A stretch of DNA of 64,000 nucleotides from Bacteroidota bacterium (GCA_050257045.1 JBLMWD010000118.1:34356-98355); one strand, 5' to 3'; shown: positions 39,665 to 64,000, numbered from the stretch's first letter. Notes: generated from the letters alone by a model not told the origin. Program-made: numbers and translations.

Positions 39665-39761
39665 GGAGGACTCCCTATTCCGCGGGCCGCGGATCGCTTG
39701 GGAGAATACGCGCCCGGGTCCCATCGTCCTAGTGTCCCGGGGTATACCGACCGCTGCGGCG

Positions 39762-42544: not shown

Positions 42545-42724
42545 GGGCCAAGAGTAACGGGTTTGAGGCCTGGCTGCCAGCCGGGCGCGCCGGAGGCCCG
42601 CGCCCGGAAACGTGGAATTCGATGTTGCGGGTCTTTCCAAGTCAGGCGCACAATTTTCGGGCTGTTAAGGGTTTTGCCGTCCGCCCTTCCTTGCGGGGAA
42701 GGTTTCGATAGATCGAAGGTTCCA

Positions 42725-48516: not shown

Positions 48517-51207
48517 CTACTTCAATATTGTGAACCTCCCCTGGGACGACGCCTCGGACGCGTCGATGCGGTAGAAGTAGACTCCGGAGGCCAGCGGCGA
48601 CCCCGTCTCCGAGCGTCCGTCGATCCGGACCTCGTGGCGGCCCGCGGCCGTCTCGGCGTCATACGCCGTCCGGACCAGGCGCCCCGCCAGGTCAAAGACC
48701 TGGACACGCACCCGTCCTGCCTTCGACGTCTGGAACGACAGCACCGCCTCGGGATTCAGCGGATTCGGCGCGATCGAGGCGGCGAGCTGCCCCGACCCGT
48801 TCACGACCTCGATCGAGAGGTCGCCGGTGAAGGACCCGCCGGTCATCAGATTTCCGCGAACCGTGACCGTCACCGTGTTCGTCCCCGCCGGGAAGCCGAG
48901 GCTGGCGAAATCGGATACGGCGAAGCAGACCTCGAGATCCGGCACACCGTTGCCGTCGGTGTCCGAAATCACCGCTCCCTTCGAGGCGAGGGCGTTCACG
49001 AAGGCGCCGTTGTACCCGAGCTGAACCGTGGAGAGGTCGACGTTTTCGAGCAGGAAGTCTCCGGCGATCGGCTCGACCTGGGCGCACCAGGTCCGTCCGG
49101 ACTGCGCGCTCGCGATCCGAATTCTCCGGAACCGGTTCTTCGCGACGAAGACCCGTGCCTGGACCTGATTCTGGATCGTGACCGGCGCCGTGTCGGAGCC
49201 GGTGAGGAATCCGTCGGAGACGGTGAGCGTGGCCGTGTACGACCCCGCCACCGCATACGTGTGCTGCGGCGTCGGACCGACACCGGTGGCGCCGTCTCCG
49301 AACGCCCAGGAGTAGGCGAGCTGGTCGCCGTTCGGGTCGGACGACCCCGTCCCGTCGAACGCGATCTGCGCGTGCACCAGCCCCGAATAAGGACCGCCCG
49401 CCTCGGCGACCGGCGGCAGGTTGGTGCCGCTCTGGCTGACGGTGATCTGGGTGGTGGCCGAGCCGCTCAACGCATTCGTGGCCGTGAACACGACGTTGAA
49501 GACGCCGGTCTGGCCCGGTGTCGGAGTCCAGTCGAACGTGCCCGAGGTGTGCGACGCGTTCGTGCTGAACGTCGATCCGACCGGGGCGCCATACGTGCCG
49601 AACGAGACGATCGCGTCGCCGTCCGGATCGATGGCGGTCACGGTGAATTCGATCAGGGTTCCCACCGCGCCCGACACCGAGAGGGGCGCCGTGACGACGG
49701 GAGCGCGATCGAAGCAGGCGACGTAGACATTGGTGGTTCTGGCGCCGGTCATGCTATTCGCCGCTGTGAACGTGAAGTTCCAGCTCCCCTCGGAGCTGAA
49801 GGAAGGTGTCCAGCTGAAGGTGCCCGACGTGTTCGTGGCGTTCACGGTGAAGGAGAAGTTCGTCGACGGCACCGGGTACACGGTCAGACTGGAAATGGCG
49901 TCCCCGTCGGGATCGGAGGCGGAGACCGTGAAGGTCAGGTTGCTGAGCGGACAGACCGTCAGGAAACCCGGCGCGGTGACGACCGGGGCGCGGTCGACGT
50001 TGGAGATCGAGAACGTCGTGGTCGCCGATCCAGTGAGCGTCGCCGTCGCGGTGAACGTCACGGCGTACGTGCCGGCCTGGTCGTATCCGGGCGTCCAGGC
50101 GAACGTCCCCGACGTGTTCGTCGCGTCGGTCGTGAACGCCGCGCCGGCCGGAAGGGGCGAGGCGGCGAGCTGGACGATCGGCTCGCCGTCCGGAGTCGAA
50201 GCGGTCACCACGAACGTGATAGGTGTCCCTTCCGGTCCCGAGACCGTGGCCGGGGCGGCGACGACCGGGGTCGCGGAGCAGGCGCCGACGTCGATCGCGG
50301 TGCTGGCTGAGCCGGAGAGCGCGTTCGCGGCCGTGAACGTCACGTTGTAGGAGCCTTCCTGCCCCGAAGCGGGGGTCCAGGCGAAAGTCCCCGAGGTCAG
50401 GGCAGCGTTCGTCACGAACGTGGCGCCCGAGGGGATCGGAGCCGCCGTGAGCGACGTGATCGGGTCGCCGTCCGGATCGGACGCGATGACGTCGAACGAG
50501 AGCGCGCTGCCTGCGCAGGTCGAGACGCTCGCGGGCGCCGACACGACCGGCGCGTGCGGCACGTCACGGACCGTGATGTACGTCGTCCCCGAGCCGATCT
50601 GCAGGTTCATGGCCACGAACGTCACCCGGTAGAGCCCCGCCTGACTGAACGTCGGGAGCCAGGAGAACGTTCCGAACTGCTTCGCCGCGTCCACCGTGAA
50701 GATGGCGTTCGCCGGGAGCGCGGACGTGTTCCAGGCGGTGATCGCCTCGCCGTCCGGATCGGAGGCGCTCACGGTGAACGTAAGGAGCGCCTGCTCGTCG
50801 GTCGAGGCGGTCGGCGGCGCGTTCACGACGGGCACGGAATTCCCCGCCGCGTAGATCTGAAGGAAAACCGTGGCGGAGCCGGAGAGCGAATTCGAGGCGG
50901 TGAAGGTGACGTTCGTCTGTCCCGCCGCCGACGGAGTCCACTGGAACGTGCCCGACGTGTGCGTGGCGTCCGACGTGAACGTCGCTCCCGAGGGAAGCGG
51001 CGATCCGGTGAGCGAGGCGATGGCGTCGCCGTCGGGATCCGAGGCCAGCAGCACGAAGCTCACGGGCACCCCGGCGTTACCGTAGACGCCGGTGGGCGCG
51101 AGCACGACGGGGGCCCGGTCCTGGGCGTGCGCGACGAGCGGGAGCAGGAACAGGGCGGCGATCGCCGCGGCGGAAGCGAGCAGGCAGGCTCGCGGGGAGC
51201 GGATCAT
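48517..51207 (-). CDS. Surface protein with six tandem cadherin-like/putative-Ig (He_PIG-type) repeats, a PKD domain and T9SS type-A C-terminal sorting domain
   Basis: Signal peptide MIRSPRACLLASAAAIAALFLLPLVAHA. 6x units of about 95 aa (APVVxAP...F.V.ASDPDGDxIxSL...P.GATF...TSGTFxWTP...G.Y.VTFTA.N.LSGSA). PKD: AEAGGPYSG...SSDPNGDQLAYSWAFGDG. C-terminal domain: IAPNPLNPEAVLSFQTSKAGRVRVQVFDLAGRLVRTAY...ASGVYFYRIDASEASSQGRFTILK. Confidence 0.8.
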   Translation of the reverse strand: MIRSPRACLLASAAAIAALFLLPLVAHAQDRAPVVLAPTGVYGNAGVPVSFVLLASDPDGDAIASLTGSPLPSGATFTSDATHTSGTFQWTPSAAGQTNVTFTASNSLSGSATVFLQIYAAGNSVPVVNAPPTASTDEQALLTFTVSASDPDGEAITAWNTSALPANAIFTVDAAKQFGTFSWLPTFSQAGLYRVTFVAMNLQIGSGTTYITVRDVPHAPVVSAPASVSTCAGSALSFDVIASDPDGDPITSLTAAPIPSGATFVTNAALTSGTFAWTPASGQEGSYNVTFTAANALSGSASTAIDVGACSATPVVAAPATVSGPEGTPITFVVTASTPDGEPIVQLAASPLPAGAAFTTDATNTSGTFAWTPGYDQAGTYAVTFTATATLTGSATTTFSISNVDRAPVVTAPGFLTVCPLSNLTFTVSASDPDGDAISSLTVYPVPSTNFSFTVNATNTSGTFSWTPSFSSEGSWNFTFTAANSMTGARTTNVYVACFDRAPVVTAPLSVSGAVGTLIEFTVTAIDPDGDAIVSFGTYGAPVGSTFSTNASHTSGTFDWTPTPGQTGVFNVVFTATNALSGSATTQITVSQSGTNLPPVAEAGGPYSGLVHAQIAFDGTGSSDPNGDQLAYSWAFGDGATGVGPTPQHTYAVAGSYTATLTVSDGFLTGSDTAPVTIQNQVQARVFVAKNRFRRIRIASAQSGRTWCAQVEPIAGDFLLENVDLSTVQLGYNGAFVNALASKGAVISDTDGNGVPDLEVCFAVSDFASLGFPAGTNTVTVTVRGNLMTGGSFTGDLSIEVVNGSGQLAASIAPNPLNPEAVLSFQTSKAGRVRVQVFDLAGRLVRTAYDAETAAGRHEVRIDGRSETGSPLASGVYFYRIDASEASSQGRFTILK

Positions 51208-51360
51208 GGGGGGGGCCATTCCTTTCCGGACTCCGTGTCCTCGGTCGAGGTGGAGCTGTGGAGGGCCCATGCGCGACGGGGGGAGAACGGCTCGAGGTCG
51301 AGTCGGCGCGGTCACGGATGTTCCCTCTTGCCTGGGCGGCGAAATGCGCCCGATCGCAGG

Positions 51361-52914
51361 CTACACCTCCCGGGGTCCGGAAGGCAACCGGCCTTCGTGG
51401 ATCGCCCGGATCGTTTCCAGGCTGTCGGCCTGGTCCGCCGTCTTGTCCGGACGGTAGCGCTTCACCCGCGCGAAGCGGAGCGCGAGGCCGGCAGGATAGT
51501 GTGGGCTCTCCTGCACGTCGTTGAACGCGACCTCGACCACCTGCTCGGGACGAAGCTGCACCGTGTAGCCGTCGGTGGCGACGGCGAGCTCCTGGAAGCG
51601 CTTCGTCTGCCAGGCGAGCATCTCGTCGGTCATCCCCTTGAACGTCTTCCCGAGCATGACGAATCCGCCGGAAACGGGATCGCGCGCGCCGAGGTGGATG
51701 TTGCTGAGCGTTCCCGCGCGCCGGCCGTGCCCCCACTCCGCTGCGAGCACGACGAGGTCGAGCGTGTGCGCCTCCTTCACCTTGAGCCACGAGAAGCCGC
51801 GACGGCCGGCTTCGTAGGGGGCGCCGGGCGCCTTCGCCATGAGCCCTTCGTGGCCCCGGGCGAGCGCCTCGCGCAGGAACGCGTCGGCGGTGGCGGGGTC
51901 CGCGGTGAGGCGGCGCGGCACGGCGAGCCCGGGCGCGAGGAGCTCGAGCGCGCCGAAGCGCTCGCGGCCGGGCGCGTCGAAGAGGTCTTCGCCATCCATG
52001 CGGAGGACGTCGAAGAAGAAGGGCGTGAGCGGAAGCTCCGCGCGGAGCTTCTCGACGTCGAGGCGACGGCCGAAGCGGCGCATCGTGACCTGGAAGGGAT
52101 GCGGGCGCCCATCCTCGCGGAGCGCGATCGCCTCGCCGTCCAGGATGAGCTCGCGCGCGGGGAGCGCGCGCGCCGTCTCGACCAGCTCGGGGACCGCGAC
52201 CGTCACGTCGTTCATCCGGCGCGAGAAGACGCGAACCTCATCGACCTCCTTGTGGACCTGCACGCGCGCGCCGTCGAGCTTGTACTCGAGCGCCGCCTCG
52301 CCGAGCCGCTCGAGCGCGGCGTCGAGATCCTCGGCCGGCTGCGCGAGCATCGGCTGGATCGGGCGGAACATCTCGACCCGGAACCGCGCGAGCGCTCCGC
52401 GTCCCTCATGGAGCACCGCGCGCGCGACCGCCTCGGGATCGCCCGAGAGCATCGTCGCGCGGCGGATCTCGGCCGCGGGAATGTCCGTCGCCCTGGCGAG
52501 CGCCTCCTCCATCACGCCGGCGAGCGCTCCCTGGCGGAGCTCGCCGAGGAGCATGCGCGCGAGGAAGTCCTGCTCCCCCGCCGTCGCGCGCGCGAAGAGA
52601 TCGGCGAGCCGGCGGCGGCGCTCCCCGGCCGAGCCCGCGCCGGCGAGGGCGGCGACACGCGCGAGCGCGTCGTCCGTCGCGGCGAGCGTGAGCGAGGGCT
52701 CGGCGGCCGCCGCTTCCCCGCGCACGCCGTAGACCGCGGCGCCTCCGATGCCGAGCCGCGCCTGCCTCGGATGACCCGAGAGATAGGCCACACCGATCTC
52801 GATCTCGTCGCCCTGGAGGCGCCGGAGGAGCGCCGCGAGGAGCGAGGCCTTGGTGGAGCGCGCGCCGGTCGCGGCGACGTCGCGCGAGGCGCTGGCGAGC
52901 TCGGCGAGGAGCAT
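51361..52914 (-). CDS. ATP-dependent DNA ligase
   Basis: MLLAELASAS... N-terminal DNA-binding domain. Motif I EYKLDGAR (KxDG), motif ...FFFDVLRMDG..., EGLMAK (motif IV/V). OB-fold C-terminus. Confidence 0.85.
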   Translation of the reverse strand: MLLAELASASRDVAATGARSTKASLLAALLRRLQGDEIEIGVAYLSGHPRQARLGIGGAAVYGVRGEAAAAEPSLTLAATDDALARVAALAGAGSAGERRRRLADLFARATAGEQDFLARMLLGELRQGALAGVMEEALARATDIPAAEIRRATMLSGDPEAVARAVLHEGRGALARFRVEMFRPIQPMLAQPAEDLDAALERLGEAALEYKLDGARVQVHKEVDEVRVFSRRMNDVTVAVPELVETARALPARELILDGEAIALREDGRPHPFQVTMRRFGRRLDVEKLRAELPLTPFFFDVLRMDGEDLFDAPGRERFGALELLAPGLAVPRRLTADPATADAFLREALARGHEGLMAKAPGAPYEAGRRGFSWLKVKEAHTLDLVVLAAEWGHGRRAGTLSNIHLGARDPVSGGFVMLGKTFKGMTDEMLAWQTKRFQELAVATDGYTVQLRPEQVVEVAFNDVQESPHYPAGLALRFARVKRYRPDKTADQADSLETIRAIHEGRLPSGPREV

Positions 52915-52995
52915 CGAGAGATTATACGTCGCTCCGTTTGACCTCCTCCCCTGTCCGGAGTAGCGTCTACGTGGGGTGGGACACAAGGAGGTTCC

Positions 52996-53565
52996 ATGAT
53001 CCGGTGGCTTCGGATCGCTCTCGCCGCGTGCCTGCTCCTCGCCCCGACCTCCGCGCGCGCCTTTCCGATCCGCATCGACTTCACCTTGAATCGCTCGTAC
53101 GCATTTCTGCCGCCGGAGGACCGCACCCCGGCGTACGGGTCCGGCTGGTTCATCCTCGACACCGACCTGCTCACGCAGAACGGCGCCGCCACGTACACGC
53201 TGCCCGCCCTTGTCCTCGAGGATTTCCACATGAGCTACGGGAGCGACCAGTGGCGTCTCCCCGATCTCGGCTCGCTCCATGTCGACTGGAATCCGGCGAT
53301 CCCGATGGATCGGCTCTACCAGGCTGATTGGGGACCGTTCTGCGGGTGGAGCCTGGCCGGGAGCGACTGGTGGATCCATGGCGGCGACCGGCCGACGTTG
53401 GCGGGCGGTTATCTCGACGCCGAATACGTCGACGTGATGTGGAATATCTCGCCGGTCGTGCTCGCGATGCCCGAGCCTCCGAGCGGAGTATTCCTGCTCC
53501 TTGGGCTCCTGGCGATCGGGCTCATGAGCCGGCGTCGGAGGCCCGCGACGGGACCGGCCGTCTGA
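52996..53565 (+). CDS. PEP-CTERM sorting domain-containing secreted protein
   Basis: Signal peptide MIRWLRIALAACLLLAPTSARA. C-terminus PEPPSGVFLLLGLLAIGLMSRRRR is a PEP motif plus TM helix plus Arg cluster, the exosortase recognition signal. Confidence 0.75.
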   Translation: MIRWLRIALAACLLLAPTSARAFPIRIDFTLNRSYAFLPPEDRTPAYGSGWFILDTDLLTQNGAATYTLPALVLEDFHMSYGSDQWRLPDLGSLHVDWNPAIPMDRLYQADWGPFCGWSLAGSDWWIHGGDRPTLAGGYLDAEYVDVMWNISPVVLAMPEPPSGVFLLLGLLAIGLMSRRRRPATGPAV

Positions 53566-53581
53566 GGTACGATCGCGGGGC

Positions 53582-54340
53582 ATGTCCGAGCCCGCGGCTC
53601 CCATCGAGCTGGACGGCGTCCTCAAGCGCTTCGGCGAAACCACGGCGCTCGATCTCCCGCGCCTGACGGTCGCGCCGCGGACCACCCTCGCCGTGGTCGG
53701 TCCGAGCGGGTGCGGGAAGAGCACCCTCCTCCGCCTCGTCGTGGGCCTCCTCGCCCCCGACCGCGGCACCGTCCGTGTCGCCGGCGTTCCCATGACGCCC
53801 GCGACACGCCCCGCGCTCCTCCTCCGGATCGGCTACGTCATCCAGGAAGGGGGCCTCTTCCCCCATCTCACAGCGGCCGCCAACGTCACGATCGCGGCCG
53901 AGGACCGGGGCTGGCCGCGCGAGCGCCGCGAGGCGCGCCTCGGCGAGCTGCTCGAGCTCACGCAGATGCCGCGCGCGCTCCTCGCGCGCCACCCAGCCGA
54001 GCTGAGCGGCGGTCAGCGGCAGCGCGTCGCGCTCATGCGCGCCCTGATGCTCGACCCCGAGGTGGTGCTTCTCGACGAGCCGCTCGCCGCGCTCGATCCC
54101 ATGATCCGCGCCGACCTCCAGCGCGATCTCCGCCGCGTCTTCGAGCGCCTCCACAAGACGGTCCTCTTCGTGACCCACGACGTCGGCGAGGCCACGACGG
54201 TGGGCGACGAGATCGTCGTGATGCGTGACGGGAAGATCGTCCAGCGAGGCGGATTCCGCGACCTCATCGAGCGCCCGGCCGATCCCTTCGTGACCGCGTT
54301 CCTCACGGCGCAGCGGCCGGCCGCGTGGAGCGGAGCGTGA
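53582..54340 (+). CDS. ABC transporter ATP-binding protein, QAT (quaternary-amine/osmoprotectant) family
   Basis: Walker A GPSGCGKST, signature LSGGQRQRVALMRAL, Walker B VVLLDEP, H-loop VTHD. 252 aa, no CBS domains. Confidence 0.9.
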   Translation: MSEPAAPIELDGVLKRFGETTALDLPRLTVAPRTTLAVVGPSGCGKSTLLRLVVGLLAPDRGTVRVAGVPMTPATRPALLLRIGYVIQEGGLFPHLTAAANVTIAAEDRGWPRERREARLGELLELTQMPRALLARHPAELSGGQRQRVALMRALMLDPEVVLLDEPLAALDPMIRADLQRDLRRVFERLHKTVLFVTHDVGEATTVGDEIVVMRDGKIVQRGGFRDLIERPADPFVTAFLTAQRPAAWSGA

Positions 54341-56031
54341 GCCGCCGCGCCGCCCCCACATCCGTCGCGGCCCGCGCGCTCGTGGCCGCCCTGTGCCTCG
54401 CGCCCATCGCGACCCGAGCGCCCGCGGCGGCTGCCGCCGGCCGAGGCGTCACGATCGGCTCGAAGGCCTTCGCCGAGTCGTGGATCCTGGGCGATGCGCT
54501 CGCCTCGGAGATGCGCGCCGCCGGCGTGCCGCGCGTGGAGCACCGGCGGAACCTGGGCGGAACGGAGATCGTCCTCCAGGCGCTCCGCTCGGGCGACGTC
54601 GACGTCTATCCCGAGTACACGGGGACGATCCAGGAAGTGATCGTGAAGAGCCCGGGCACGACCGATCCGGAGGCGATGCGGCGCGCCCTGGCCGCGCTCG
54701 GTCTCGGGATGAGCGATCCGATCGGATTCGACGACAGCTACGCGGTCGCGGTCACGCCGGCGGCGGCCGAGCGCTACGGCCTGCACACCATCTCCGACCT
54801 CGCGAAACACCCCGAGATTCGGCTCGGGCTCACGCACGAGTTCCTGGGTCGTGCGGACGGCTTCCCCGGCCTCGCCGCGCGCTACGGCCTCTCGAACCGG
54901 AACGTGACCGGGATCCAGCACGAGCTCGCCTATGCGGCGCTCATGAGCGGCAGGATCGACGGAACCGACATCTACACGACCGACGCCCAGATCGAGCGGC
55001 TCGGGCTCCGCATCCTCGAGGACGACCGGCGATTCTTCCCGCGCTACGATGCGGTCTGGCTCTACCGGATCGACCTCGCGCGGCGCGAGCCGCGCGCGAT
55101 GCAGGCGATCCGACGGCTCACGGGGACCATCGACCGGGCGCGAATGATCCGCGCCAACGCGCGGGTGGTGCTCGGGGGTGTGAGCGCGGAGATGTCGGCG
55201 GACTCGCTTCTGGACGAGATTGGGGCGCCGGCAGCGGGCGGCGCCGGGGCGCCTGGAAACGCGGGTGCGTCGGGAGTCGTACCCGTTTCGCGCGCCGGCA
55301 CCAGCCGCGCGATCTCGATTGCGCGGAATACGGCGCAGCATCTGAAACTAGTGGCGCTCTCTCTTCTAGCCGCTGTTCTCATCGGCATTCCCCTCGGCAT
55401 CGCCGCCGCGCGCTCGCGCTGGATCGGCGGCACGGTGCTGGCCGTGACCGGCCTCGCGCAGACCATCCCCTCGCTTGCGCTCCTCGCCGTGCTCATCCCA
55501 CTCCTCGGGATCGGCGTGCTCCCGGCACTGGTCGCGCTCTTCATCTACAGCCTTCTGCCGATCGTCCGGAACACGTACGTGGGCCTCACCACCATCCCCC
55601 CGCCGCTCCTCGAATCGGCCTCCTGCCTCCCTCTTTCCGGCCGCACCCAGCTCCTCCGGATCCGCCTCCCGCTCGCCGCGCCCGCCATCCTGGCCGGCAT
55701 CCGGACGAGCGCCGTGATCAACGTGGGGTCGGCCACGCTGGCCGCCCTGATCGGCGCCGGAGGCCTGGGGGAGCCGATCCTGACCGGCATCCAGCTCCGC
55801 CGGACCGACCTGATCCTGGAAGGGGCGGTCCCGGCAGCCCTCCTCGCCCTCCTCGTGGAGCGGGGGTTCGATTGGATCGAACGGTTGGCCGTCCCGAGAG
55901 GGCTCCGGCCGGCGGCTTCGGCCCGCCGGGGGTTGGGGAGACAGGCCCCGCCCGATTCGTCTAGAATCGGGGGCGATTCCACCCTGGAGGCTGACCATGA
56001 CAAGCACGCTCCGATCGAGCGAAACCCCTGA
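54325..56031 (+). CDS. Fused quaternary-amine ABC transporter substrate-binding domain (N-terminal) and permease (C-terminal)
   Basis: N-terminal OpuAC-like SBP (GSKAFAESWILGDALASE...VDVYPEYTGT...). C-terminal 6-TM BPD permease with EAA-like loop (ESASCLPLSGRTQLLRIRLPLAAPAILAG). Overlaps both the upstream ATPase and downstream egtB. Confidence 0.85.
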   Translation: MERSVSRRAAPTSVAARALVAALCLAPIATRAPAAAAAGRGVTIGSKAFAESWILGDALASEMRAAGVPRVEHRRNLGGTEIVLQALRSGDVDVYPEYTGTIQEVIVKSPGTTDPEAMRRALAALGLGMSDPIGFDDSYAVAVTPAAAERYGLHTISDLAKHPEIRLGLTHEFLGRADGFPGLAARYGLSNRNVTGIQHELAYAALMSGRIDGTDIYTTDAQIERLGLRILEDDRRFFPRYDAVWLYRIDLARREPRAMQAIRRLTGTIDRARMIRANARVVLGGVSAEMSADSLLDEIGAPAAGGAGAPGNAGASGVVPVSRAGTSRAISIARNTAQHLKLVALSLLAAVLIGIPLGIAAARSRWIGGTVLAVTGLAQTIPSLALLAVLIPLLGIGVLPALVALFIYSLLPIVRNTYVGLTTIPPPLLESASCLPLSGRTQLLRIRLPLAAPAILAGIRTSAVINVGSATLAALIGAGGLGEPILTGIQLRRTDLILEGAVPAALLALLVERGFDWIERLAVPRGLRPAASARRGLGRQAPPDSSRIGGDSTLEADHDKHAPIERNP

Positions 56032-57316
56032 AGTCCTCGCGGCCCGGATGGCGGACGCCCGGGCGCGCACCGACGAGATCTTCAAGATCGTGAGCCCCGA
56101 CGCGCTCTACGAGCGGGCCATTCCCGAGCGCCACCGGCTCGCCTTCTATCTCGGACACGTCGAGGCGTTCGACGGCAACCTGCTCCGGCAGGCCTGGGAC
56201 CTCGCCTCGTTCAATCCTGTCTACGACAAGCTCTTCGCCTTCGGCATCGACCCCGTCGACGGCGCGCTCCCGAGCGAGGCCGCCGAGGTCTGGCCGCGGC
56301 CCGAGCCGATCCGGTCGTACAACGGCCGCATCCGCGAGGCCGTCGATGAATGCCTCGCCGGCAAGCGCCCGCTCGCCGCCGGGCACGACGCGGCGACGAT
56401 CCTCAACATGGCGATCGAGCACCGCCTCATGCATGCCGAGACGCTCGCCTATCTGATCCATCAGCTCCCCTACAAGGTGAAGCACGGGAAAGGGGATCCC
56501 CCCGCGCCGAAAGCCGCGGCCGGGGATCTCACGCGGAAGCTCCGCATCCCCGCCGGGAAGGCGACGCTCGGTCGGACGCGCTCGTCCGGCGTCTTCGGCT
56601 GGGACAACGAATTCCAGGAGAAGGCTGTCGACGTGCCGGCGTTCGACATCGATGCCCACAAGGTCACGAACGGCCAGTTCGAGAAGTTCGTCGAGGCGGG
56701 CGGCTACGAGAACAAGTCGTACTGGACCCCCGAGGACTGGGCCTGGAAGGAAGAGCAGAAGCTGAAGCATCCGTTCTTCTGGTCGAAGAAGGGCAAGGGC
56801 TGGAAGTACCACGGCATGTTCGCCGATTCCGATCTCTCCCCGAATGCGCCGGTTTACGTGAGCCACGCGGAGGCCGCCGCGTACGCGCGCTGGACCGGCC
56901 GCGCGCTCCCGACCGAGGGGCAGTTCCACCGCGCCGCCTACGGCACTCCGACGGGCGAGGAGCGCGAGTATCCGTGGGGGAACGAGCGCCCGGCCGAGAA
57001 GCACGGCAACTTCGACTTCCACCGCTGGGATCCGACGCCGGTCGGGTCGTATCCCGCGGGGGCGAGCGCATTCGGCGTGCAGGAGCTGGTCGGAAACGGC
57101 TGGGAGTGGACTTCGTCGGTGTTCGAGCCGTTCCCGGGCTTCGAGGCGCACCCCTTCTACAAGGGCTACTCGGCCGACTTCTTCGACGGGAAGCACTACG
57201 TGATGAAGGGGGGCTCGCCCCGGACCGCCGCGTGCATGCTGCGGCGGAGCTTCCGGAACTGGTTCCAGCCGCGCTACCCCTACGTCTACGCGTCCTTCCG
57301 CACGGTCGGAGTGTGA
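55997..57316 (+). CDS. egtB: Ergothioneine biosynthesis sulfoxide synthase EgtB (DinB_2 + FGE-sulfatase domains)
   Basis: N-terminal DinB_2 (HRLAFYLGHVEAFD...EHRLMHAETL) plus C-terminal FGE-like (GWDNE...YVSHAEAAAYARWTGRALPTEGQF...WEWTSS). 439 aa. Confidence 0.9.
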   Translation: MTSTLRSSETPEVLAARMADARARTDEIFKIVSPDALYERAIPERHRLAFYLGHVEAFDGNLLRQAWDLASFNPVYDKLFAFGIDPVDGALPSEAAEVWPRPEPIRSYNGRIREAVDECLAGKRPLAAGHDAATILNMAIEHRLMHAETLAYLIHQLPYKVKHGKGDPPAPKAAAGDLTRKLRIPAGKATLGRTRSSGVFGWDNEFQEKAVDVPAFDIDAHKVTNGQFEKFVEAGGYENKSYWTPEDWAWKEEQKLKHPFFWSKKGKGWKYHGMFADSDLSPNAPVYVSHAEAAAYARWTGRALPTEGQFHRAAYGTPTGEEREYPWGNERPAEKHGNFDFHRWDPTPVGSYPAGASAFGVQELVGNGWEWTSSVFEPFPGFEAHPFYKGYSADFFDGKHYVMKGGSPRTAACMLRRSFRNWFQPRYPYVYASFRTVGV

Positions 57317-58311
57317 CGCGCGGGAGCGGCGGCGGAGCGGGGCGCGCCGCTCCCGGCACCACCGGGGGGCTCGACGCCGGGCTGATCGCGGCGATCCGTG
57401 CCGGACTTTCGGGGCCCGGTCCGAAGACCCTCCCGCCGGCCCTCCTCTACGACGAGCTCGGGACCGCGCTCTTCGACGCGATCAGCGCGCTTCCCGAGTA
57501 CGGGCTGACGCGCGCCGACGAGCGGATCCTGCGCCGGCACGCTCCCGCGATTTCCCGCGCGATGGCGACGCCGCTCCTCGTGGCGGAGCTGGGGAGCGGG
57601 AGCGGACGGAAGACGCGCTGGATCCTGGATGCCCTCGCCTCGCGGCAGACCACGCACTACTTCCCCATCGACATCTCCGACACCGCCCTCGCGCGCTGCG
57701 CCGCCACGCTCGGGAAGCTTCCCGCGGTCCGATTCGACGGGATCCACGCCGATTATCTGGCCGGCCTTGCCGAGGTCGGCGCGCGGCGGCTCCCCGCGCA
57801 TCAGCTCCTCGTGCTCTTCCTCGGAAGCACGATCGGCAACTTCGAGCCCGATGCGGCGCGGAGCTTCCTCCGGTCCGTGCGCGCGACGCTGAAATCGGGC
57901 GACGCGCTGCTGCTCGGGACCGATCTCGTGAAGGCGGGACCGGTCCTCGTGCGCGCCTACGACGATCCGCTCGGCGTGACCGCCGCGTTCGACAAGAACG
58001 TGCTCGCGCGGATGAACCGCGAGCTGGGCGCCGCGTTCGACCTCGGCGCGTTCCGTCACGAGGCGCGCTGGCACGAGCGGGAGCGCCGGGTCGAGATGCA
58101 CCTCGTCGCGCGCCGCGCGGGCGAGGTCGTCGTGGCGGGGCTCGATCTGAGGGTGTCCTTCCGCGAGGGCGAGAGCATCTGGACCGAGAGCTCCTACAAG
58201 TTCGACCCCGAGGACGTGGTGAAGCTGGCGACGGCCGCCGGATTCGAGGTCGAGTCGCAGTGGACGGACGAGGAGTGGCCGTTCATCGAGTCGCTCCTGC
58301 GGGTGGAGTAG
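57313..58311 (+). CDS. egtD: L-histidine N-alpha-methyltransferase EgtD
   Basis: GTG start overlapping the egtB stop (GTGTGA). LLYDELGTALFDAISALPEYGLTRADERIL...ELGSGSGRKT...FLGSTIGNF are EgtD/methyltransf_33 motifs. Confidence 0.85.
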   Translation: MTRGSGGGAGRAAPGTTGGLDAGLIAAIRAGLSGPGPKTLPPALLYDELGTALFDAISALPEYGLTRADERILRRHAPAISRAMATPLLVAELGSGSGRKTRWILDALASRQTTHYFPIDISDTALARCAATLGKLPAVRFDGIHADYLAGLAEVGARRLPAHQLLVLFLGSTIGNFEPDAARSFLRSVRATLKSGDALLLGTDLVKAGPVLVRAYDDPLGVTAAFDKNVLARMNRELGAAFDLGAFRHEARWHERERRVEMHLVARRAGEVVVAGLDLRVSFREGESIWTESSYKFDPEDVVKLATAAGFEVESQWTDEEWPFIESLLRVE

Positions 58312-58315
58312 CGGG

Positions 58316-58684
58316 ATGCCGCGCCAGACGAACGATTACCTGCTGCGCCAGACCCGCGCGCTCGCGGCCATGCTGGCGCGGATCGCGGGATTCCGGGTCG
58401 CGGGCGAGGTCGAGGAGGCGCGGGACGAGCTCGAGCAGGCCTACGGGTTGCTGCTGGGGCCGCAGACCGATCTCGTGCGGCGGCTCGATCCTTCGACTGC
58501 AGCCGCCATCATGGGCTCGCCCGACCGGATGCTGCTGATGGCGCGATTGCTGGAAGAGGAGCGTCTGCAGGGTGGGGACGAAGCGCTCCACGCGCGCGCG
58601 GTCGCGCTCGTTCAGGAAGCGCTCCGGCGCGAGGCGGACAACGAGGATGCCAAGGCACTGCTCGTCGAGCTGACCACTCGCTGA
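58316..58684 (+). CDS. Small hypothetical helical protein downstream of egtD
   Basis: 122 aa starting 5 nt after the egtD stop. Protein-like composition (MPRQTNDYLLRQTRALAAMLARIAGF...). No family recognised. Confidence 0.35.
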   Translation: MPRQTNDYLLRQTRALAAMLARIAGFRVAGEVEEARDELEQAYGLLLGPQTDLVRRLDPSTAAAIMGSPDRMLLMARLLEEERLQGGDEALHARAVALVQEALRREADNEDAKALLVELTTR

Positions 58685-58696
58685 CGGAGCCGGAGC

Positions 58697-59899
58697 TCAC
58701 CTCTCCGGCGCGATTTCTCCCAACTCCCGAACGGCCCGCTCGAGCTGCTCGTCCTCGAGATACGGCGCCGGACCCATCCGAAGAAGCTCCCCACGGTAGT
58801 CCGTCCATACCGCCCGCTGTCGCAGCCTCCTGCAGACGTCGGCCGCGTGCGGGCTTTGGAGCGCGAGGAAACCGCCGATCCGATGGAGCGGAGTCGAGGC
58901 ATCACGTGCGATCCGGCGTCGATCCAGATCGAGCTCGTCGAACCGTTTCGCAAGCAGCCCGACCTGATGACGGCTGATCTCGCGAAGGCGCTCGGGCGTG
59001 AGTTTCTGCGCCTCGAAGAAATCGAACACGCGCGCGGCGCGGTAATGGCTGGTCGGATCGTACGTCGCGCCGGCCCAGCGGTCGGGGCCTTCGGCATAGG
59101 GCACGCGTCCGGCCGCGCGCCCGGTCAGGTGCGCGAACTCCCCAAACCAGCCGGTGATCAGCGGACGGTAGTCGCGGGCGTGGGACGGGACGCGGAGGAA
59201 GCAGTTTCCTTCCCCGAGCTGGCAGTACTTGTAGCCGCCGCCCACGACGAAGGCTTCTCCGAGCCCCTCGCCCTCGAGCGAGAACGGCACCACGTTCAGG
59301 TGGTGGTAGGCATCCACCAGGAGCTCGGCGCCGTGACGACGGCACGCTGCCGCAACCGAGCCGAGGCCGGGGACGATGGCGGCATTGCTGAACAAGACCG
59401 ACGAGGCCAGCACCGCGGACGTGCGTCCATCGACGACAGCGACGAGACGCTCCGCGATGGCGTCCGGCGGATCGACGGAGACCTTCACGACCTCGAGCAG
59501 CCGGTCCTCGGCGAGGCGGTCGAGCTGGCGGCGGATCGAGTGGAACTCGCCGTCGGTGGTCACGAGGCGCGGCCGCTCGCGGAGCGGGAGCGCCGAGAGG
59601 AAGCGGACGACGAGCTCGTGGGTGTTCGCGCCGAGAGCGACCTCCTCGGGGTTGCCACCGAGGAGCCGCGCGAAGCCGCGGCGCACGCGATCGGCCTTCT
59701 CCGCGGCGCGGCCCCACTTTTCGTCCGCCAGCTCCGCGGCGTCGTTCCAGGCCTCCACCTGCCCCTCGAAGGCGACGTCCGGCCAGGCCTGGTGGGAGTG
59801 ACCGGTGAGGAGAATCCGCTCGGAGACGCGGAAGCGCGTGTAGTGGCGGGCCAGAGCCCCCGGCGAGCCCTGCGAGCCGGAGATCACATCAGCTCCCAT
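58697..59899 (-). CDS. kynU: Kynureninase (PLP-dependent, aminotransferase class V fold)
   Basis: ILLTGHSHQAWPD..., class-V fold motifs. Located directly downstream of kynA in the same operon. Confidence 0.7.
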   Translation of the reverse strand: MGADVISGSQGSPGALARHYTRFRVSERILLTGHSHQAWPDVAFEGQVEAWNDAAELADEKWGRAAEKADRVRRGFARLLGGNPEEVALGANTHELVVRFLSALPLRERPRLVTTDGEFHSIRRQLDRLAEDRLLEVVKVSVDPPDAIAERLVAVVDGRTSAVLASSVLFSNAAIVPGLGSVAAACRRHGAELLVDAYHHLNVVPFSLEGEGLGEAFVVGGGYKYCQLGEGNCFLRVPSHARDYRPLITGWFGEFAHLTGRAAGRVPYAEGPDRWAGATYDPTSHYRAARVFDFFEAQKLTPERLREISRHQVGLLAKRFDELDLDRRRIARDASTPLHRIGGFLALQSPHAADVCRRLRQRAVWTDYRGELLRMGPAPYLEDEQLERAVRELGEIAPER

Positions 59900-59932
59900 T
59901 CGTGGACGTGATCCGCCTCCTCCGGATGCAGC

Positions 59933-60715
59933 TCATAGTTCCGTCCGAATGGTCCAGAGGTCGGGGAAGAACGGCTTGTCGAGGGTCGTCTTGAGGTAGG
60001 CCGCGCCCTCCGATCCGCCCGTCCCCTGCTTCGCGCCGATCGTCCGCTCCACCATCTTCACGTGGCGGTAGCGCCACTCCTGCATTCCCTCGTCCAGGTC
60101 GACCATCCGCTCGCAGAGCGACGAAGTCATCGGGTCCTTGCGGTAGACCTCGATGAGGACGCGGTGGAGCTCCGGCGCGGCAACGACCGGCTTCGTCACG
60201 TCGCGACCCAGGAGCTCGAGAGGCACGTCGTAGCCCTGTGCCGTGAGATAGCGCAGGAACGCGTCCCACACCGTCGGCTCGGAGGCGCGCCGCTCGAGGC
60301 GCTTCCGCGCGTCGCTCCCCTCGGGATAGCGCGCGAGCGCCGCGTCGCTCCGCATCCCGAGCAGGAACTCGAGCTCGCGAAACTGGAACGACTGGAACCC
60401 GCTCCCCGACTCGAGCCGCGCGCGGAAGGTGAGGAACTCGAGCGGCGTCATCGTTTCGAGCACGTCGATCTGGGCGACCACGACCTTGAGGATCGTGAGG
60501 ACGCGCTTCATCGTGTGCAGCGCGCGCGGCAGGTCGTTGGCCGCGAGGCGCCCTTTCAGGTAGTCGAGCTCGTGCAGCATCTCCTTGAACCAGAGCTCGT
60601 AGACCTGGTGCACCACGATGAAGAGCGTCTCGTCGTGCTCGGGTCCTTCGGAGAGGGGCTGCTGGAGCGCGAGGAGCTCGTCCAGTTTCAGGTAGCTGCC
60701 GTAGGTCACCGCCAT
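59933..60715 (-). CDS. kynA: Tryptophan 2,3-dioxygenase
   Basis: SYLKLDELLALQQPLS...DETLFIVVHQVYELWFKEMLHEL...FRELEFLLG...YRHVKMVERTIG are the conserved TDO motifs, including the heme-ligating His region. Confidence 0.85.
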   Translation of the reverse strand: MAVTYGSYLKLDELLALQQPLSEGPEHDETLFIVVHQVYELWFKEMLHELDYLKGRLAANDLPRALHTMKRVLTILKVVVAQIDVLETMTPLEFLTFRARLESGSGFQSFQFRELEFLLGMRSDAALARYPEGSDARKRLERRASEPTVWDAFLRYLTAQGYDVPLELLGRDVTKPVVAAPELHRVLIEVYRKDPMTSSLCERMVDLDEGMQEWRYRHVKMVERTIGAKQGTGGSEGAAYLKTTLDKPFFPDLWTIRTEL

Positions 60716-60746
60716 CGCGCCTCCTTGGGCGACCGCCCGCGCTCCG

Positions 60747-62999
60747 TCAGGAGAAGCGGGGGCGGTACTGGTTCAGCGATTCGTAGGGATCCGGCCACGG
60801 CAACGCGTATCCGAGCTCGAAGGCCGCGTGCCGGGTCCAGTACGGATCCCAGAGGTGGGCCCGCGCGAGCAGGCAGAGGTCCGCCCGTCCCGCCGCGAGG
60901 ATCGTGTTCACGTCGGCGTACGACGAGATGTTCCCGACGGCCATCGTGGCGATCCCCGCCTCGTGGCGGATCCGGTCGGCGAACGGCGTCTGGAACAGGC
61001 GGCCGTAGACCGGGCGCTGGTCGGGCACGGTCTGCCCCGCCGAAACGTCCACGATATCGCAACCCTTCGCATTCAGCATCCGCGCGACCTCGACCGAGTC
61101 CTCCGGCGCCATGCCGCCGGGCTTCCAGTCGACGGCGGAGATGCGGACCGACATCGGCCGCTCATCGGGCCAGACCGCGCGCACGGCCGCGAAGACCTCG
61201 AGCGGGAAGCGCATCCGGTTCTCGAGGGAGCCGCCGTATTCGTCGGTGCGGAGGTTCGTGAGCGGCGAGATGAAACTCGCGAGAAGGTAGCCGTGCGCCA
61301 TGTGGATCTCGAGGAGATCGAATCCGGCCTGCACCGCCCGACGCGCCGCGTCCGTGAACTGATCCCGCACTTCGTCCATGTCGGCACGGGTCATCTCGCG
61401 CGGGGTTTGGCTGTGCGGAAAGTACGGGATCGGCGAGGGGGCGATGATCGGCCACCCTCCGTGCTCGAGCGGCTCCGCGTCGCCCTCCCACGAGAGGCGG
61501 GTCGAGGCTTTCCGCCCCGCGTGGCCGAGCTGCACCGCGATTTTTGTGTTTTGCATTTTGTGTACAAAATCCACGATGCGCTTCCACGCTGCGGCATGCG
61601 CGTCCGACCAGAGCCCGGCGCACCCCGGCGAGATCCGTGCCTCGGGGCTCACGTCGGTCATCTCCACGAAGACGAGACCGGCCCCTCCGACGGCGCGCGA
61701 GCCGATGTGGACGAGGTGCCAGTCGTCGGGCATCCCGTCCACGGCGGAGTACTGGCACATCGGCGAGACGACGACCCGGTTCGAGAGCACGAGGTCTCGG
61801 ATCCGGAACGGCGTGAACATCGGCGGGGGCGCGGGGTGGCGCGGAACGGGCTTCCCCGACTGCTCCTCGGCCTCCTCCGCGAACCACGTGTCCACGCGCT
61901 CCGTGAAGCCGGGGTCGCGCATCCGGAGATTCTCGTGCGTGACGCGCAGGCTGCGCGTGATCAGCGTGAAGGCGAACTGGAGCGGCTCGAGGCTCATGTA
62001 GCGCTCGGTGTCCTCGAACCACTGCAGCGAGGCCTGGGCCGCGCGCTGCAGGCTCTCGACGGGCGGACGCCGCGCCGCCTCGTAGGCGGCGAGCGCGTCG
62101 GGGATCGACGGCTCCCGCCGGAGCGCCTCGACCAGGGCCACCGAGTCCTCCATCGCAAGCTTCGTCCCCGAGCCCACCGAAAAATGCGCCGTGTGCGCGG
62201 CGTCCCCGACCAGCACGATGTTCCGCCACGACCAGCGCTCGTTCCGGATCGTCGGGAAGCTCCGCCAGATCGAGCGGTTCGCGAGCAGCCGGTGGCCCGC
62301 GAGCTCCTCCGCGAAGAGCCGCTCGCAGAAGGCGAGCGTGTCGGCCTCGCTCGCGTCCGCGAGCCCCGCCTTCCGCCACGTCTCCTCGCGCGCTTCCACG
62401 ATGAACGTCGAGCGGTCCGGCTCGTACTGGTAGGCGTGCACCCGCCAGAGGCCGTTCGCGTCATTCTTGAAGTAGAACGTGAATGCCGGGAACGGCTTCG
62501 TCGTTCCGAGCCAGACGAACTTGTTCGGCCGGACATCCACGACCGGACGGAAGTGCTCGCGATAGCGCTCGCGCACGGGCGAATTCACGCCGTCGGCTGC
62601 GAGGATCAGGTCGGCGCCGTCGAGCGAGGCCGGGTCGGCCACCTCGCGCTCGAAGCAGACGTGCACGCCGGCCTCACGGCAGCGGCCGGCGAGGACTCCG
62701 AGGAGCGCCGCGCGCGAGAGCCCGGAGAAGCGGTGCCCGGTCGAGGTGATGGTCTCGCCGCGGTAGTGGATCTCGATGTCGTCCCAGCGGTGGCACCGCG
62801 CCGACGTCGCGGCGGCGACCTCGGGGTCGGCGACGGCGAGCGCCTCCTCGGTGGCGTCGGAGAAGACGACGCCGAAACCGAACGTGTCGTCCGGGCGGTT
62901 CCGCTCGTAGACGGCGATCTCGTGGCGCGGATCGGCGCGCTTCAGGAGGAGCGCGAAGAAGAGCCCGGCCGGCCCGCCGCCGATGACCGCGGCCCTCAT
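60747..62999 (-). CDS. Fused FAD-dependent aromatic monooxygenase + Old-Yellow-Enzyme-like NADH:flavin reductase (2-aminobenzoyl-CoA monooxygenase/reductase-like)
   Basis: N-terminus [19 protein letters not shown] (FAD GxGxxG), DG/GD motifs of class A flavin monooxygenases. C-terminal half [26 protein letters not shown]...[17 protein letters not shown] is the OYE TIM-barrel. ATGA overlap with the upstream acyl-CoA dehydrogenase. Confidence 0.75.
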
Positions 63000-64000
63000 G
63001 GCCGGGCCTGCAGCACCTGTCCCGCGATCACGAGTCGCTGGATCTCGGTCGTCCCCTCGTAGATCCGGAGCGCGCGCACGGCTCGATACAGGCGGTCCAC
63101 CGGGTGGTCCGCCATCACGCCGCGCGCGCCGAGGATCTGAACCGCCTCGTCCACGATCCGCTGCGCCGCCTCGGTGGCGAACGACTTCGCCATCGCGGCC
63201 TCCATCGTAACGCGCTCGGCGCCGTGGTCGGCCTCCCAGGCGGCGCGATAGACGAGGAGGCGCGCCGCGTCCAGATCGGTCGCCATGCGCGCGATCTTCT
63301 CCTGGACGAGCTGGAACTCGGCGAGCGGCTTCCCGAACTGCGCGCGCGAGCGGGCGTGGCGCGCGGCCTCGTCCAGCGCGCGCGCGGCCATGCCGCAGGC
63401 GGCGGCCCCGACCGTGGCCCGCATACGGTCGAGCGTCTTCAGGCCGAGCGCGAACCCGCGCCCCTCTTCGCCCAGGAGGTTCGCCGCGGGCACGCGGCAC
63501 TCCTCGAACGCGATCGCGCCGAGGGGATGCGGCGCCGACAGGACCTGCGCTCCCGAAAACCGCAGCCCCGGCGCGTCGGCCGGAACGAGGAACGCCGAGA
63601 TCCCCTTGCCTCGCGCCGCGGGATCGGTGGAGGCGAAGACGACGTAGAAGTCGGCGATTCCCGCGTTCGAGATGTACGTCTTAGATCCGGCGAGGACATA
63701 GTCCTCGCCGTCGCGCCGCGCGCTCGTGCGAAGCGCGGCCACGTCCGAGCCGGCCTCGGCCTCGGTCATGGCGAACGCGGCGATTGCGCGCCCCGCGATC
63801 GCGTCCTCGGCGAAGCGCGCCCCCGCCGGCGTACCGGTCTGGAGCAGCGGCAGCGTCCCGAGCCCCTGAAGCGCAAAGACCGCGTCGGCGAGCGGGCTCG
63901 CCGCGGCAAGCGCCTCGCGCGCGATGCAGCAGGCGCGCCAGTCGCCCTGACGGATGGGCTCGAGGAGCCTCGCGCCGCCGAGCAGGCCGAGGATCGCGCG
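62996..64000 (-). CDS. Acyl-CoA dehydrogenase (C-terminal part; gene continues beyond window end)
   Basis: [48 protein letters not shown]...[15 protein letters not shown] are ACAD middle and C-terminal domain signatures. Upstream in-frame sequence continues to the window edge. Confidence 0.8.

Follow-up and report, generated by a model that had tools for sequence, protein, structure and literature searches.

The ergothioneine genes egtB and egtD are joined in one operon to a two-gene ATP-binding cassette (ABC) transporter in a 64,000-nucleotide stretch of DNA from Bacteroidota bacterium (GCA_050257045.1 JBLMWD010000118.1:34356-98355), which is called the window below. The transporter consists of an ATPase and a substrate-binding domain (SBD) fused to a permease, and it was found near egtB and/or egtD in 40 of 80 related species-level loci. 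This linkage is not a matter of chance and is the strongest result of the analysis. We propose, with a probability of about 0.6, that the system takes up a histidine betaine (ergothioneine and/or hercynine) for salvage and is dedicated to the ergothioneine pathway, the ligand being read from context only.

The window has a G+C content of about 70%, and the core of the operon is formed by four open reading frames (ORFs) at 53582-58311. As described in the initial annotation of the sequence, they all run on the plus strand and their stop and start codons overlap or abut:

53582..54340 (+): ABC transporter ATP-binding subunit, 252 aa; PF00005, 1.6e-32
54337..56031 (+): SBD-permease fusion, likely start GTG 54337, first in-frame GTG 54325; PF04069, 5.7e-49, and PF00528, 6.5e-22
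55997..57316 (+): EgtB-type non-haem-iron sulfoxide synthase, type IV-like, 439 aa; DinB_2 and FGE-sulfatase domains
57313..58311 (+): EgtD, L-histidine N-alpha-methyltransferase (hercynine-forming), 332 aa; PF10017, 6.7e-97

Conserved linkage of the transporter to egtB and egtD

An SBD profile was scanned against one genome per GTDB species, which gave 80 loci with 48-78% SBD identity (numbered with the prefix L below). Linkage was read from tblastn of these loci with the window's five protein segments, and the ORF calls, some of which are antisense shadows, were not used. It turned out that egtB-egtD lies directly downstream on the same strand in 22 of the 80 loci, and that egtB lies downstream before the contig ends in 2 of them. 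Another 16 contain egtD and/or egtB within 8 kb in other layouts, so that 40 loci are linked in total, and the remaining 40 have neither gene. The other layouts are, for example, divergent upstream (L034, L039, L046), convergent downstream (L031, L035, L038, L044) and upstream co-directional (L043, L054), and at least five gene orders occur among the linked loci. The share of linked loci was 26 of 32 at an SBD identity of at least 64%, 13 of 19 at 57-64%, and 1 of 29 below 57% (L078, labelled Planctomycetales). Among the six unlinked loci at 64% or above, four end within 300 nt of the permease gene and one has a TonB receptor gene followed by the contig end. The initial expectation that co-localisation would be conserved in related genomes was therefore borne out.

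The EgtB proteins of the linked loci are of two kinds. In 10 of the 16 rearranged loci, EgtB is 26-33% identical to that of the window, and the seven of these that were scanned are canonical EgtB proteins (TIGR03440, 440-603 bits against a cutoff of 360), while window-type proteins reach about 240-250 bits. Because these are two unrelated EgtB lineages, the transporter travels with the pathway and not with one gene lineage. Sampling in the reverse direction gave a similar picture: the transporter is next door in 3 of 4 long contigs picked via EgtB homologues, and egtBD is present by the homologue P0012 and by 2 of 3 further transporter homologues on long contigs. Since 16 kb around a gene make up about 0.3-0.4% of a 4-6 Mb genome, we infer that fewer than one chance co-occurrence would be expected in 80.

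Several observations weaken the case for a dedicated system. L020 is a well-flanked unlinked locus, the sole one at 64% identity or above, several Polyangiaceae loci and the EgtB contig L087 are without linkage, and the close members are all from uncultured organisms, no cultured host of the linked module being present among the 240 best homologues. The linked loci come without exception from metagenome assemblies, and some of their phylum labels are odd at 70-78% protein identity, which hints at mis-binning and may overstate the number of independent lineages. Besides, the kynurenine genes downstream of the operon are also syntenic in the closest relatives, so conservation is partly plain synteny. 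Even so, it is hardly credible that the genes lie side by side by accident, or that misassembly or the common descent of close relatives produced the pattern, in view of the 40 linked species, the gene orders, the two EgtB lineages, the chance expectation and the overlapping stop and start codons inside single contigs. The initial annotation had also called the coupling of such a transporter to the biosynthetic genes an unusual arrangement, and this holds for the searchable literature but not within the lineage, where linkage is the norm.

The only cultured organisms in the set carry paralogues from Variovorax and Burkholderiales (L065-L083), which have Arg and Asn/Ser at the two sulfur-proximal positions discussed below. 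These paralogues are unlinked, with no cognate ATPase gene adjoining and with unrelated neighbours. Ergothioneine catabolic genes were considered beside them and rejected, the neighbours resembling, by eye, glucarate-pathway enzymes, a Bug-family receptor and the PntAB transhydrogenase.

Architecture and relatives of the transporter

Residues of the fusion protein are counted here from GTG 54325. A signal-like segment (10-37) is followed by the SBD (41-300; 54445-55224), a Gly/Ala/Pro linker (301-335), a five-helix permease (336-525; 55330-55899) and a non-conserved tail up to residue 568. The OpuAC domain (42-296) stands ahead of BPD_transp_1 (354-522), so the SBD is N-terminal to the permease, the reverse of EgtU, as had been annotated. 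Hydropathy gives five transmembrane segments with an N-out/C-in topology, which places the SBD outside the cytoplasm. The ATPase contains ABC_tran only, has no CBS osmosensing domains and falls under every NCBIfam equivalog cutoff. In most related loci a cognate ATPase gene (50-86% identity) lies directly 5' of the fusion gene.

Searched as a single sequence against the PDB, the SBD matched S. pneumoniae EgtUC best (1.4e-42, 149.6 bits), then Listeria BilEB/Lmo1422 (1e-37), H. pylori EgtU (2.5e-33) and A. fulgidus ProX (AfProX; 1e-32, 117 bits), followed by OpuBC/OpuCC. A profile of 20 family members scored 187.7 bits with EgtUC and 173.2 bits with AfProX, and the second lobe and C-terminal part of the SBD scored 114 bits with EgtUC against 78 bits with AfProX. 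The AlphaFold2 model of the SBD has a pLDDT of 93.3. In Foldseek it matched apo Listeria BilEB and apo H. pylori EgtU with a TM-score of 0.94 each and apo AfProX with 0.89, and its ten best matches were all EgtU proteins. Thus the nearest solved SBDs by both sequence and fold are three validated ergothioneine binders (S. pneumoniae, Listeria, H. pylori), and over the whole SBD, the second lobe and the fold the closest relatives are EgtU proteins and not AfProX. This agrees with the initial placement of the transporter in the betaine/choline/carnitine (QAT) class as a relative of EgtU. Judged by its domains and matches, it is a QAT/OpuAC-type ABC importer with an SBD of the AfProX/EgtU subgroup.

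The binding pocket

The residues of S. pneumoniae EgtU that are reported to contact ergothioneine (PMC9732360, PMC12922746) were mapped onto the window SBD. AfProX was aligned over its full length through a chimeric query, made of the AfProX N-terminus and the C-terminal part of the window SBD, of which the alignment was used and the scores were not. The corresponding residues are as follows:

EgtU K242: window K47, AfProX K13
EgtU I243: window A48, AfProX Pro14
EgtU G244: window F49, AfProX F15
EgtU T274: window G79, AfProX G44
EgtU T275: window T80, AfProX T45
EgtU F293: window Y98, AfProX Y63
EgtU T296: window T101, AfProX T66
EgtU Y337: window F135, AfProX F107
EgtU N339: window D137, AfProX D109
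EgtU Y341: window Y139, AfProX Y111
EgtU E375: window E172, AfProX E145
EgtU R379: window R176, AfProX R149
EgtU P401: window H199, AfProX Pro172
EgtU Y419: window Y217, AfProX Y190
EgtU Y443: window Y241, AfProX Y214

The machinery for a betaine head is complete. The carboxylate clamp K47/T101/R176 and E172 are present, and AfProX has the same residues, hence they do not discriminate between ligands. The four-tyrosine cage (Y98, Y139, Y217, Y241) is intact together with D137, and it matches in full the four-tyrosine box of AfProX (Y63, Y111, Y190, Y214) with D109 and the K13/T66/R149 clamp. The ligand therefore almost certainly has an alpha-carboxylate trimethylammonium head group.

The rest of the pocket weighs against an ergothioneine-specific binder like EgtU. 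Zhang et al. named as ergothioneine-specific G244, which gives room for a water network round the thioimidazole, and the F293/Y337 switch (PMC9732360). I243 is the main CH-S donor, and I243 and T274 lie closest to the thione sulfur in S. pneumoniae EgtU (PMC12922746). In the window, G244 is replaced by F49, which belongs to a GSKAF motif shared by 116 of the 120 best homologues, the 'Y-to-F switch' is absent, Y98/F135 being the AfProX state, and the CH-S donors I243 and T274 are replaced by A48 and G79. In S. pneumoniae EgtU, the G244F change lowers ergothioneine affinity about 100-fold and I243A about 30-fold (PMC9732360, PMC12922746), while T274G is silent (PMC12922746). Moreover, the pocket equals that of AfProX at 13 of 15 positions, with A48 and H199 as the only mismatches, and every ergothioneine-contact residue common to the window and EgtU is also found in AfProX, including the imidazole-contacting Glu. 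The SBD is a mosaic, whose N-terminal lobe matches AfProX best and is nearer to it than to EgtU. By their residues alone, the pocket positions would describe an alpha-carboxylate betaine binder, and none positively signals imidazole or thione. The initial annotation had proposed to look for ergothioneine-specific substitutions, whose absence was set beforehand to count against an EgtU-like binder specific for ergothioneine. G244, F293/Y337 and I243 are all missing, the state being that of AfProX or, at A48, of neither protein, so the outcome counts against such a binder.

Two considerations qualify this result. The EgtU of H. pylori has P296 and G327 at the two sulfur-proximal positions and yet imports ergothioneine, with a Ka of about 5e5 per M (PMC12922746, PMC9732360), and its subcluster was judged to be without the conserved determinants (PMC9732360). 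An AfProX-like pocket is therefore compatible with ergothioneine or hercynine, since H. pylori EgtU imports ergothioneine despite differing residues, and a sulfur-free ligand such as hercynine needs no sulfur-recognition features. Besides, 8 of 275 SBD columns are fixed differently between egt-linked members and the unlinked Burkholderiales paralogues. These columns include A48 (Arg in the unlinked proteins), which corresponds to I243, and G79 (Asn in the unlinked proteins), which corresponds to T274, while a third, Q198, adjoins H199. The alignment is suggestive, not decisive, of linked and unlinked paralogues that share the betaine-head machinery and differ at the pocket mouth, which would receive the far end of a larger ligand.

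The pocket raises the question of an ordinary importer for glycine betaine, proline betaine or a similar small betaine, placed in a shared stress operon (for desiccation, for example) with no metabolic link to the pathway. We regard this as possible but doubtful. It is favoured by the agreement with AfProX, a high-affinity glycine/proline betaine binder, at 13 of 15 positions, by the family profile, which scores AfProX (173 bits) near EgtUC (188 bits), and by the view of Zhang et al. that the non-EgtU subclusters of the same network are differently betaine-specific (PMC9732360 supplement). What's more, the ergothioneine output of engineered C. glutamicum rose with osmotic pressure (PMC12689799). 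However, linkage has outlasted rearrangements and the swap of EgtB lineage across differently labelled phyla, which goes beyond usual co-regulation, and the ATPase lacks CBS osmosensing domains. The neighbours are redox enzymes and not osmolyte genes, a TonB receptor in the operon suits the scavenging of a trace compound and not millimolar osmolyte uptake, and the residues that separate linked from unlinked paralogues lie at the place expected for the far end of a larger ligand. In short, the pocket favours a small betaine, and the context argues against it.

An importer of L-histidine that feeds EgtD would also explain why the transporter shares an operon with a histidine methyltransferase, and the ProX-related HutXWV of Sinorhizobium is a histidine transporter. 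According to Zhang et al., ergothioneine sits in EgtU much like histidine in HisJ (PMC9732360). Nevertheless the intact four-tyrosine cage (Y98, Y139, Y217, Y241) is a quaternary-ammonium signature, S. pneumoniae EgtU binds histidine very weakly (PMC12922746), and histidine is made by the cell itself, so a histidine importer is very unlikely.

The biosynthetic enzymes

EgtD passes the TIGR03438 equivalog with 303.9 bits against a cutoff of 290.9. The EgtB-like protein falls under the NCBIfam cutoffs for EgtB, OvoA and SenA. Its best PDB match is EgtB-IV (8vih, 4.4e-70) with 240 bits over the full length, compared with 189 bits for EgtB-I and 181 bits for OvoA. Its C-terminal RNWF is matched in the alignment by an RNWF in EgtB-IV, and the methyltransferase domain of OvoA is absent. 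The composite motif of EgtB-IV, RxYH--DxHxHYxNWFx, includes this NWF element, and EgtB proteins of types I, II and IV couple cysteine to hercynine (PMC11030361). From these matches the window sulfoxide synthase appears to be a cysteine-type EgtB of the OvoA-like branch, type IV-like, and hercynine would be its substrate, since EgtD adjoins it.

It follows that EgtD and the EgtB-IV-like enzyme cover the hercynine and sulfoxide steps, as had been annotated, and that the C-S lyase alone is left over. EgtA and EgtC would be dispensable with a cysteine-type EgtB, and a general pyridoxal phosphate-dependent lyase could act as the C-S lyase. In line with the initial annotation, no EgtA-, EgtC- or EgtE-type domains were found among the window genes surveyed. 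The kynureninase-like gene downstream was considered as an EgtE-like C-S lyase and rejected, as it lies on the opposite strand beside a tryptophan 2,3-dioxygenase gene and has a kynurenine-pathway look.

Recurrent neighbours of the module

The genes that recur beside the module have to do with redox and uptake and not with osmolyte metabolism. A TonB-dependent receptor gene lies directly 3' of the permease gene in four loci, namely L022 (4506-6245), L085 (8372-10423), L035 and L038. In L085 it shares its strand with the ATPase and permease genes, and the group runs toward egtB-egtD in convergent orientation. Two other genes recur and are given here with one locus in coordinates:

L025 5512-6924 (-): class I pyridine-nucleotide disulfide oxidoreductase, below all equivalog cutoffs; also in L026, L028, L029, L033, L044, L049 and L078
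L011 3908-5536 (-): DHA2-family major facilitator superfamily (MFS) pump; also in L013, L019, L023, L027 and L086

The disulfide oxidoreductase, a candidate for the reduction of ergothioneine disulfide, is glutathione-reductase/MerA/RclA-like and adjoins the module in eight loci with varied phylum labels. In five or six loci the gene for the MFS efflux pump (TIGR00711 above cutoff) precedes the ATPase gene in divergent orientation, and the pump is a candidate ergothioneine exporter. Besides, a cNMP-binding thioredoxin-reductase-like protein and a zf-UBP protein are encoded in L034 and L037, and a PAS histidine-kinase/receiver hybrid 3' of egtD in six or seven loci.

In L088 (2867-9256) and L054, genes for LysR, canonical EgtB, EgtD, the ATPase, the SBD-permease fusion, a 59-aa zinc-ribbon protein and OsmC stand on one strand, which is a Myxococcota-type layout. 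L043 has egtB, egtD and the ATPase, SBD-permease and zinc-ribbon genes, with LysR and OsmC unmatched.

The egtU operon of S. pneumoniae carries a SnoaL2-family gene. A parallel to it was considered and rejected as too thin, for a SnoaL-like gene was seen 3' of the permease gene only once (L089, 8514-8894, plus strand, Armatimonadota).

Proposed function

On the reading that we prefer, the salvage of a histidine betaine, the five-gene operon would co-express a binding-protein-dependent ABC importer with the two committed ergothioneine enzymes. Besides the short ATPase, the importer consists of the fusion polypeptide, whose extracytoplasmic OpuAC-type SBD is tethered by its flexible linker to the N-terminus of the five-helix permease. 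The SBD would grip an alpha-carboxylate betaine through the Lys/Thr/Arg clamp and the four-tyrosine cage, and in this way ergothioneine and/or hercynine, the precursor and desulfurised form, might be taken up from outside. Import would top up the ergothioneine pool of the cell, and hercynine, if it is the ligand, would feed EgtB directly and spare the three S-adenosylmethionine (SAM)-dependent methylations of EgtD. In some relatives, passage of the substrate through the outer membrane may be the task of a TonB-dependent receptor of the same operon. The genomic context speaks for a histidine betaine, which may be ergothioneine or hercynine. The initial proposal of an ergothioneine/hercynine transporter is thus supported in part, by EgtU relatedness and linkage and not by the pocket.

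Transport is likely to be inward, because the system is built like a type I importer, its relatives work in uptake and some loci include TonB receptors. The initial annotation had left room for export, and an exporter or secretion system for the ergothioneine made by EgtB and EgtD would suit a gene within a biosynthetic operon, given that producers are reported to secrete ergothioneine with no exporter known (PMC12689799). This is most improbable for an SBD-dependent transporter with the build of a type I importer (extracytoplasmic SBD, five-helix BPD_transp_1 permease, small ATPase), whose relatives EgtU and AfProX are uptake systems and which in four loci has an uptake receptor directly 3' of its permease gene. 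The divergent MFS pump is a better candidate for an exporter.

Within the salvage reading, hercynine is attractive as the ligand because the sulfur-recognition features have been lost, and hercynine is a marker of ergothioneine oxidation (PMC12922746). It is conceivable, though we consider it unlikely, that the system is a sulfur-blind hercynine importer, in some species with its own TonB receptor, and that EgtB re-sulfurises hercynine captured from soil, hercynine being at once the precursor of ergothioneine and a product of its oxidation. If true, this would be a recycling loop for ergothioneine that bypasses three SAM-dependent methylations, and the first hercynine-specific transporter, with an AfProX-like pocket opened through A48 and H199 for the imidazole.

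Operon structure and surroundings

The overlaps described initially between the genes are real, and one start codon probably has to be corrected, since 54325 is simply the first in-frame GTG of the fusion gene. GTG 54337 is more likely: it is preceded by GGAG at 7-10 nt, forms a GTGA overlap with the ATPase stop codon and is also the start that NCBI gives to P0001, an identical protein. The egtB ATG at 55997 is preceded by GGAGG and overlaps the end of the fusion gene (56031) by 35 nt, and egtB and egtD overlap by GTGA at 57313-57316. The 4-nt overlaps of ATPase with fusion and of egtB with egtD were seen again in related loci, and the junction of fusion and egtB varies among them, with an overlap of 35 nt in L001 and gaps of 55-95 nt in L084 and L086. 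Two further features belong to this region:

58316..58684 (+): small TPR-like ORF, 122 aa; ATG 5 nt past the egtD stop, preceded by GGAG
55938..55967 (+): sigma-70-like hexamer pair, possible internal promoter, inside the 3' tail of the fusion gene and just 5' of egtB; consensus match only

The small ORF is probably the fifth gene of the operon. It had no Pfam or NCBIfam match, and copies with 57% identity occur at the same position only in L004 and L005, that of L004 with weak TPR_19/TPR_14 matches. A promoter scan of 52700-58900 gave the hexamer pair as the sole promoter-like match (9 of 12 positions; mean of shuffles 0.2), which is a weak indication that an internal promoter may precede egtB. 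The Rfam scan of 52500-59000 (E up to 1) had no match and no riboswitch is evident there, and the terminator scan around the operon found no convincing terminator.

Upstream, a 189-aa ORF at 52996-53565 (+) has a PEP-CTERM-like tail (Pfam, 16.4 bits, sub-cutoff). Its stop lies 16 nt ahead of the ATPase start, and it may share the transcript. A LigD-like ATP-dependent DNA ligase gene at 51361-53793 (-) has its domains at residues 363-784 only; its real start is probably near 52900, and the 5' extension over the ATPase gene would be spurious. Downstream, genes for a kynureninase-like protein, a tryptophan 2,3-dioxygenase and a large FAD_binding_3/Oxidored_FMN fusion (FAD-monooxygenase/Old Yellow Enzyme) at 58697-63500 (-) converge on egtD. 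The kynurenine block also lies 3' of egtD in L001, L009, L010, L013-L015, L017, L019, L023, L027, L064 and L084, and it reads as a kynurenine-pathway operon kept by plain synteny.

Farther away, large Ig/PKD/FG-GAP surface proteins are encoded at 48517-51315 (-), 37211-39724 (-) and 42275-45415 (+). Of these, one carries a C-terminal sorting domain for type IX secretion and another a FlgD_ig tail, which fits an organism of the FCB group. The NCBI label of the contig is 'Bacteroidota bacterium', and the nearest relatives are labelled Eisenbacteria.

Significance

Bacterial ergothioneine uptake is so far known from EgtU only, in gut non-producers and pathogens, and transport on the side of the producers is undescribed. 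The module is widespread in uncultured soil lineages, with metagenome-assembled genomes labelled Eisenbacteria, Armatimonadota, Myxococcota and Planctomycetota. The joining of an EgtU-related importer to egtB and egtD suggests that histidine betaines are scavenged as well as synthesised by bacteria in the environment. The SBD (260 residues) is a defined and clonable domain, and its ligand would show whether soil organisms exchange ergothioneine or hercynine, and which residues decide if an AfProX-type pocket accepts glycine betaine or histidine betaines. Besides, the loci offer candidate parts for fermentation strains, such as an importer to delete or exploit, a putative ergothioneine disulfide reductase and a putative exporter.

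Comparison with known systems

The closest known systems are the EgtU/EgtUV importers (S. pneumoniae SPD_1642-1643, L. monocytogenes BilE, H. pylori EgtUV). Like the window system, they are two-gene QAT importers made of a small ATPase and a fused SBD-permease, and EgtU is the best match to the window SBD in both sequence and fold (30-37% identity). Common to both are the Lys/Thr/Arg clamp, the Glu at E375/E172 and three aromatic residues of the four in the cage, and H. pylori EgtU has Gly at the T274 position as in the window. In contrast, the permease precedes the SBD in EgtU while the SBD precedes the permease in the window, and the window has Phe for G244, Ala for I243, Tyr/Phe for F293/Y337, Asp for N339 and His for P401. 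EgtU was described in ergothioneine non-producers, whereas the window system adjoins egtB and egtD. The window system would work in the manner of EgtU. We do not file it as a member of EgtU, because the three defining pocket features fail and the domain order is reversed. Zhang et al. reported an uncharacterised 'upper' subcluster of Acidobacteria and Cyanobacteria in the same sequence network (PMC9732360), and this subcluster may be related to the window SBD.

AfProX of A. fulgidus (PDB 1SW1, 1SW2, 3MAM) agrees at 13 of 15 pocket positions and is the best PDB match of the N-terminal lobe. It differs in being a separate binding protein where the window SBD is fused to the permease, in having Pro at the A48 and H199 positions, and in its weaker second-lobe score (78 against 114 bits for EgtUC) and poorer fold match (TM-score 0.89 against 0.94). 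We know of no association of AfProX with ergothioneine genes.

OpuA of L. lactis and OpuF of Bacillus also hold SBD and permease in one chain, with the OpuAC and BPD_transp_1 families. Their SBD is C-terminal, whereas that of the window is N-terminal behind a signal-like segment. The ATPases of OpuA have CBS domains and are gated by ionic strength (PMC7673798), unlike the CBS-free ATPase of the window. L. lactis OpuA matches the permease part of the window fusion (7ahc, 4e-20).

Full-text literature searches gave no description of an ABC importer linked to egtB/egtD, nor of a hercynine transporter. Salvage importers are also encoded in operons that make vitamins or cofactors, among them thiamine, biotin and cobalamin, and Gram-negative bacteria sometimes add a TonB receptor. 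In the searchable literature this principle is not described for ergothioneine. The window operon is unlike the vitamin and cofactor operons in that no riboswitch or other known RNA element was found in it, and it resembles them in placing the genes for the synthesis of a costly trace metabolite beside those for the uptake of the product or of a late precursor.

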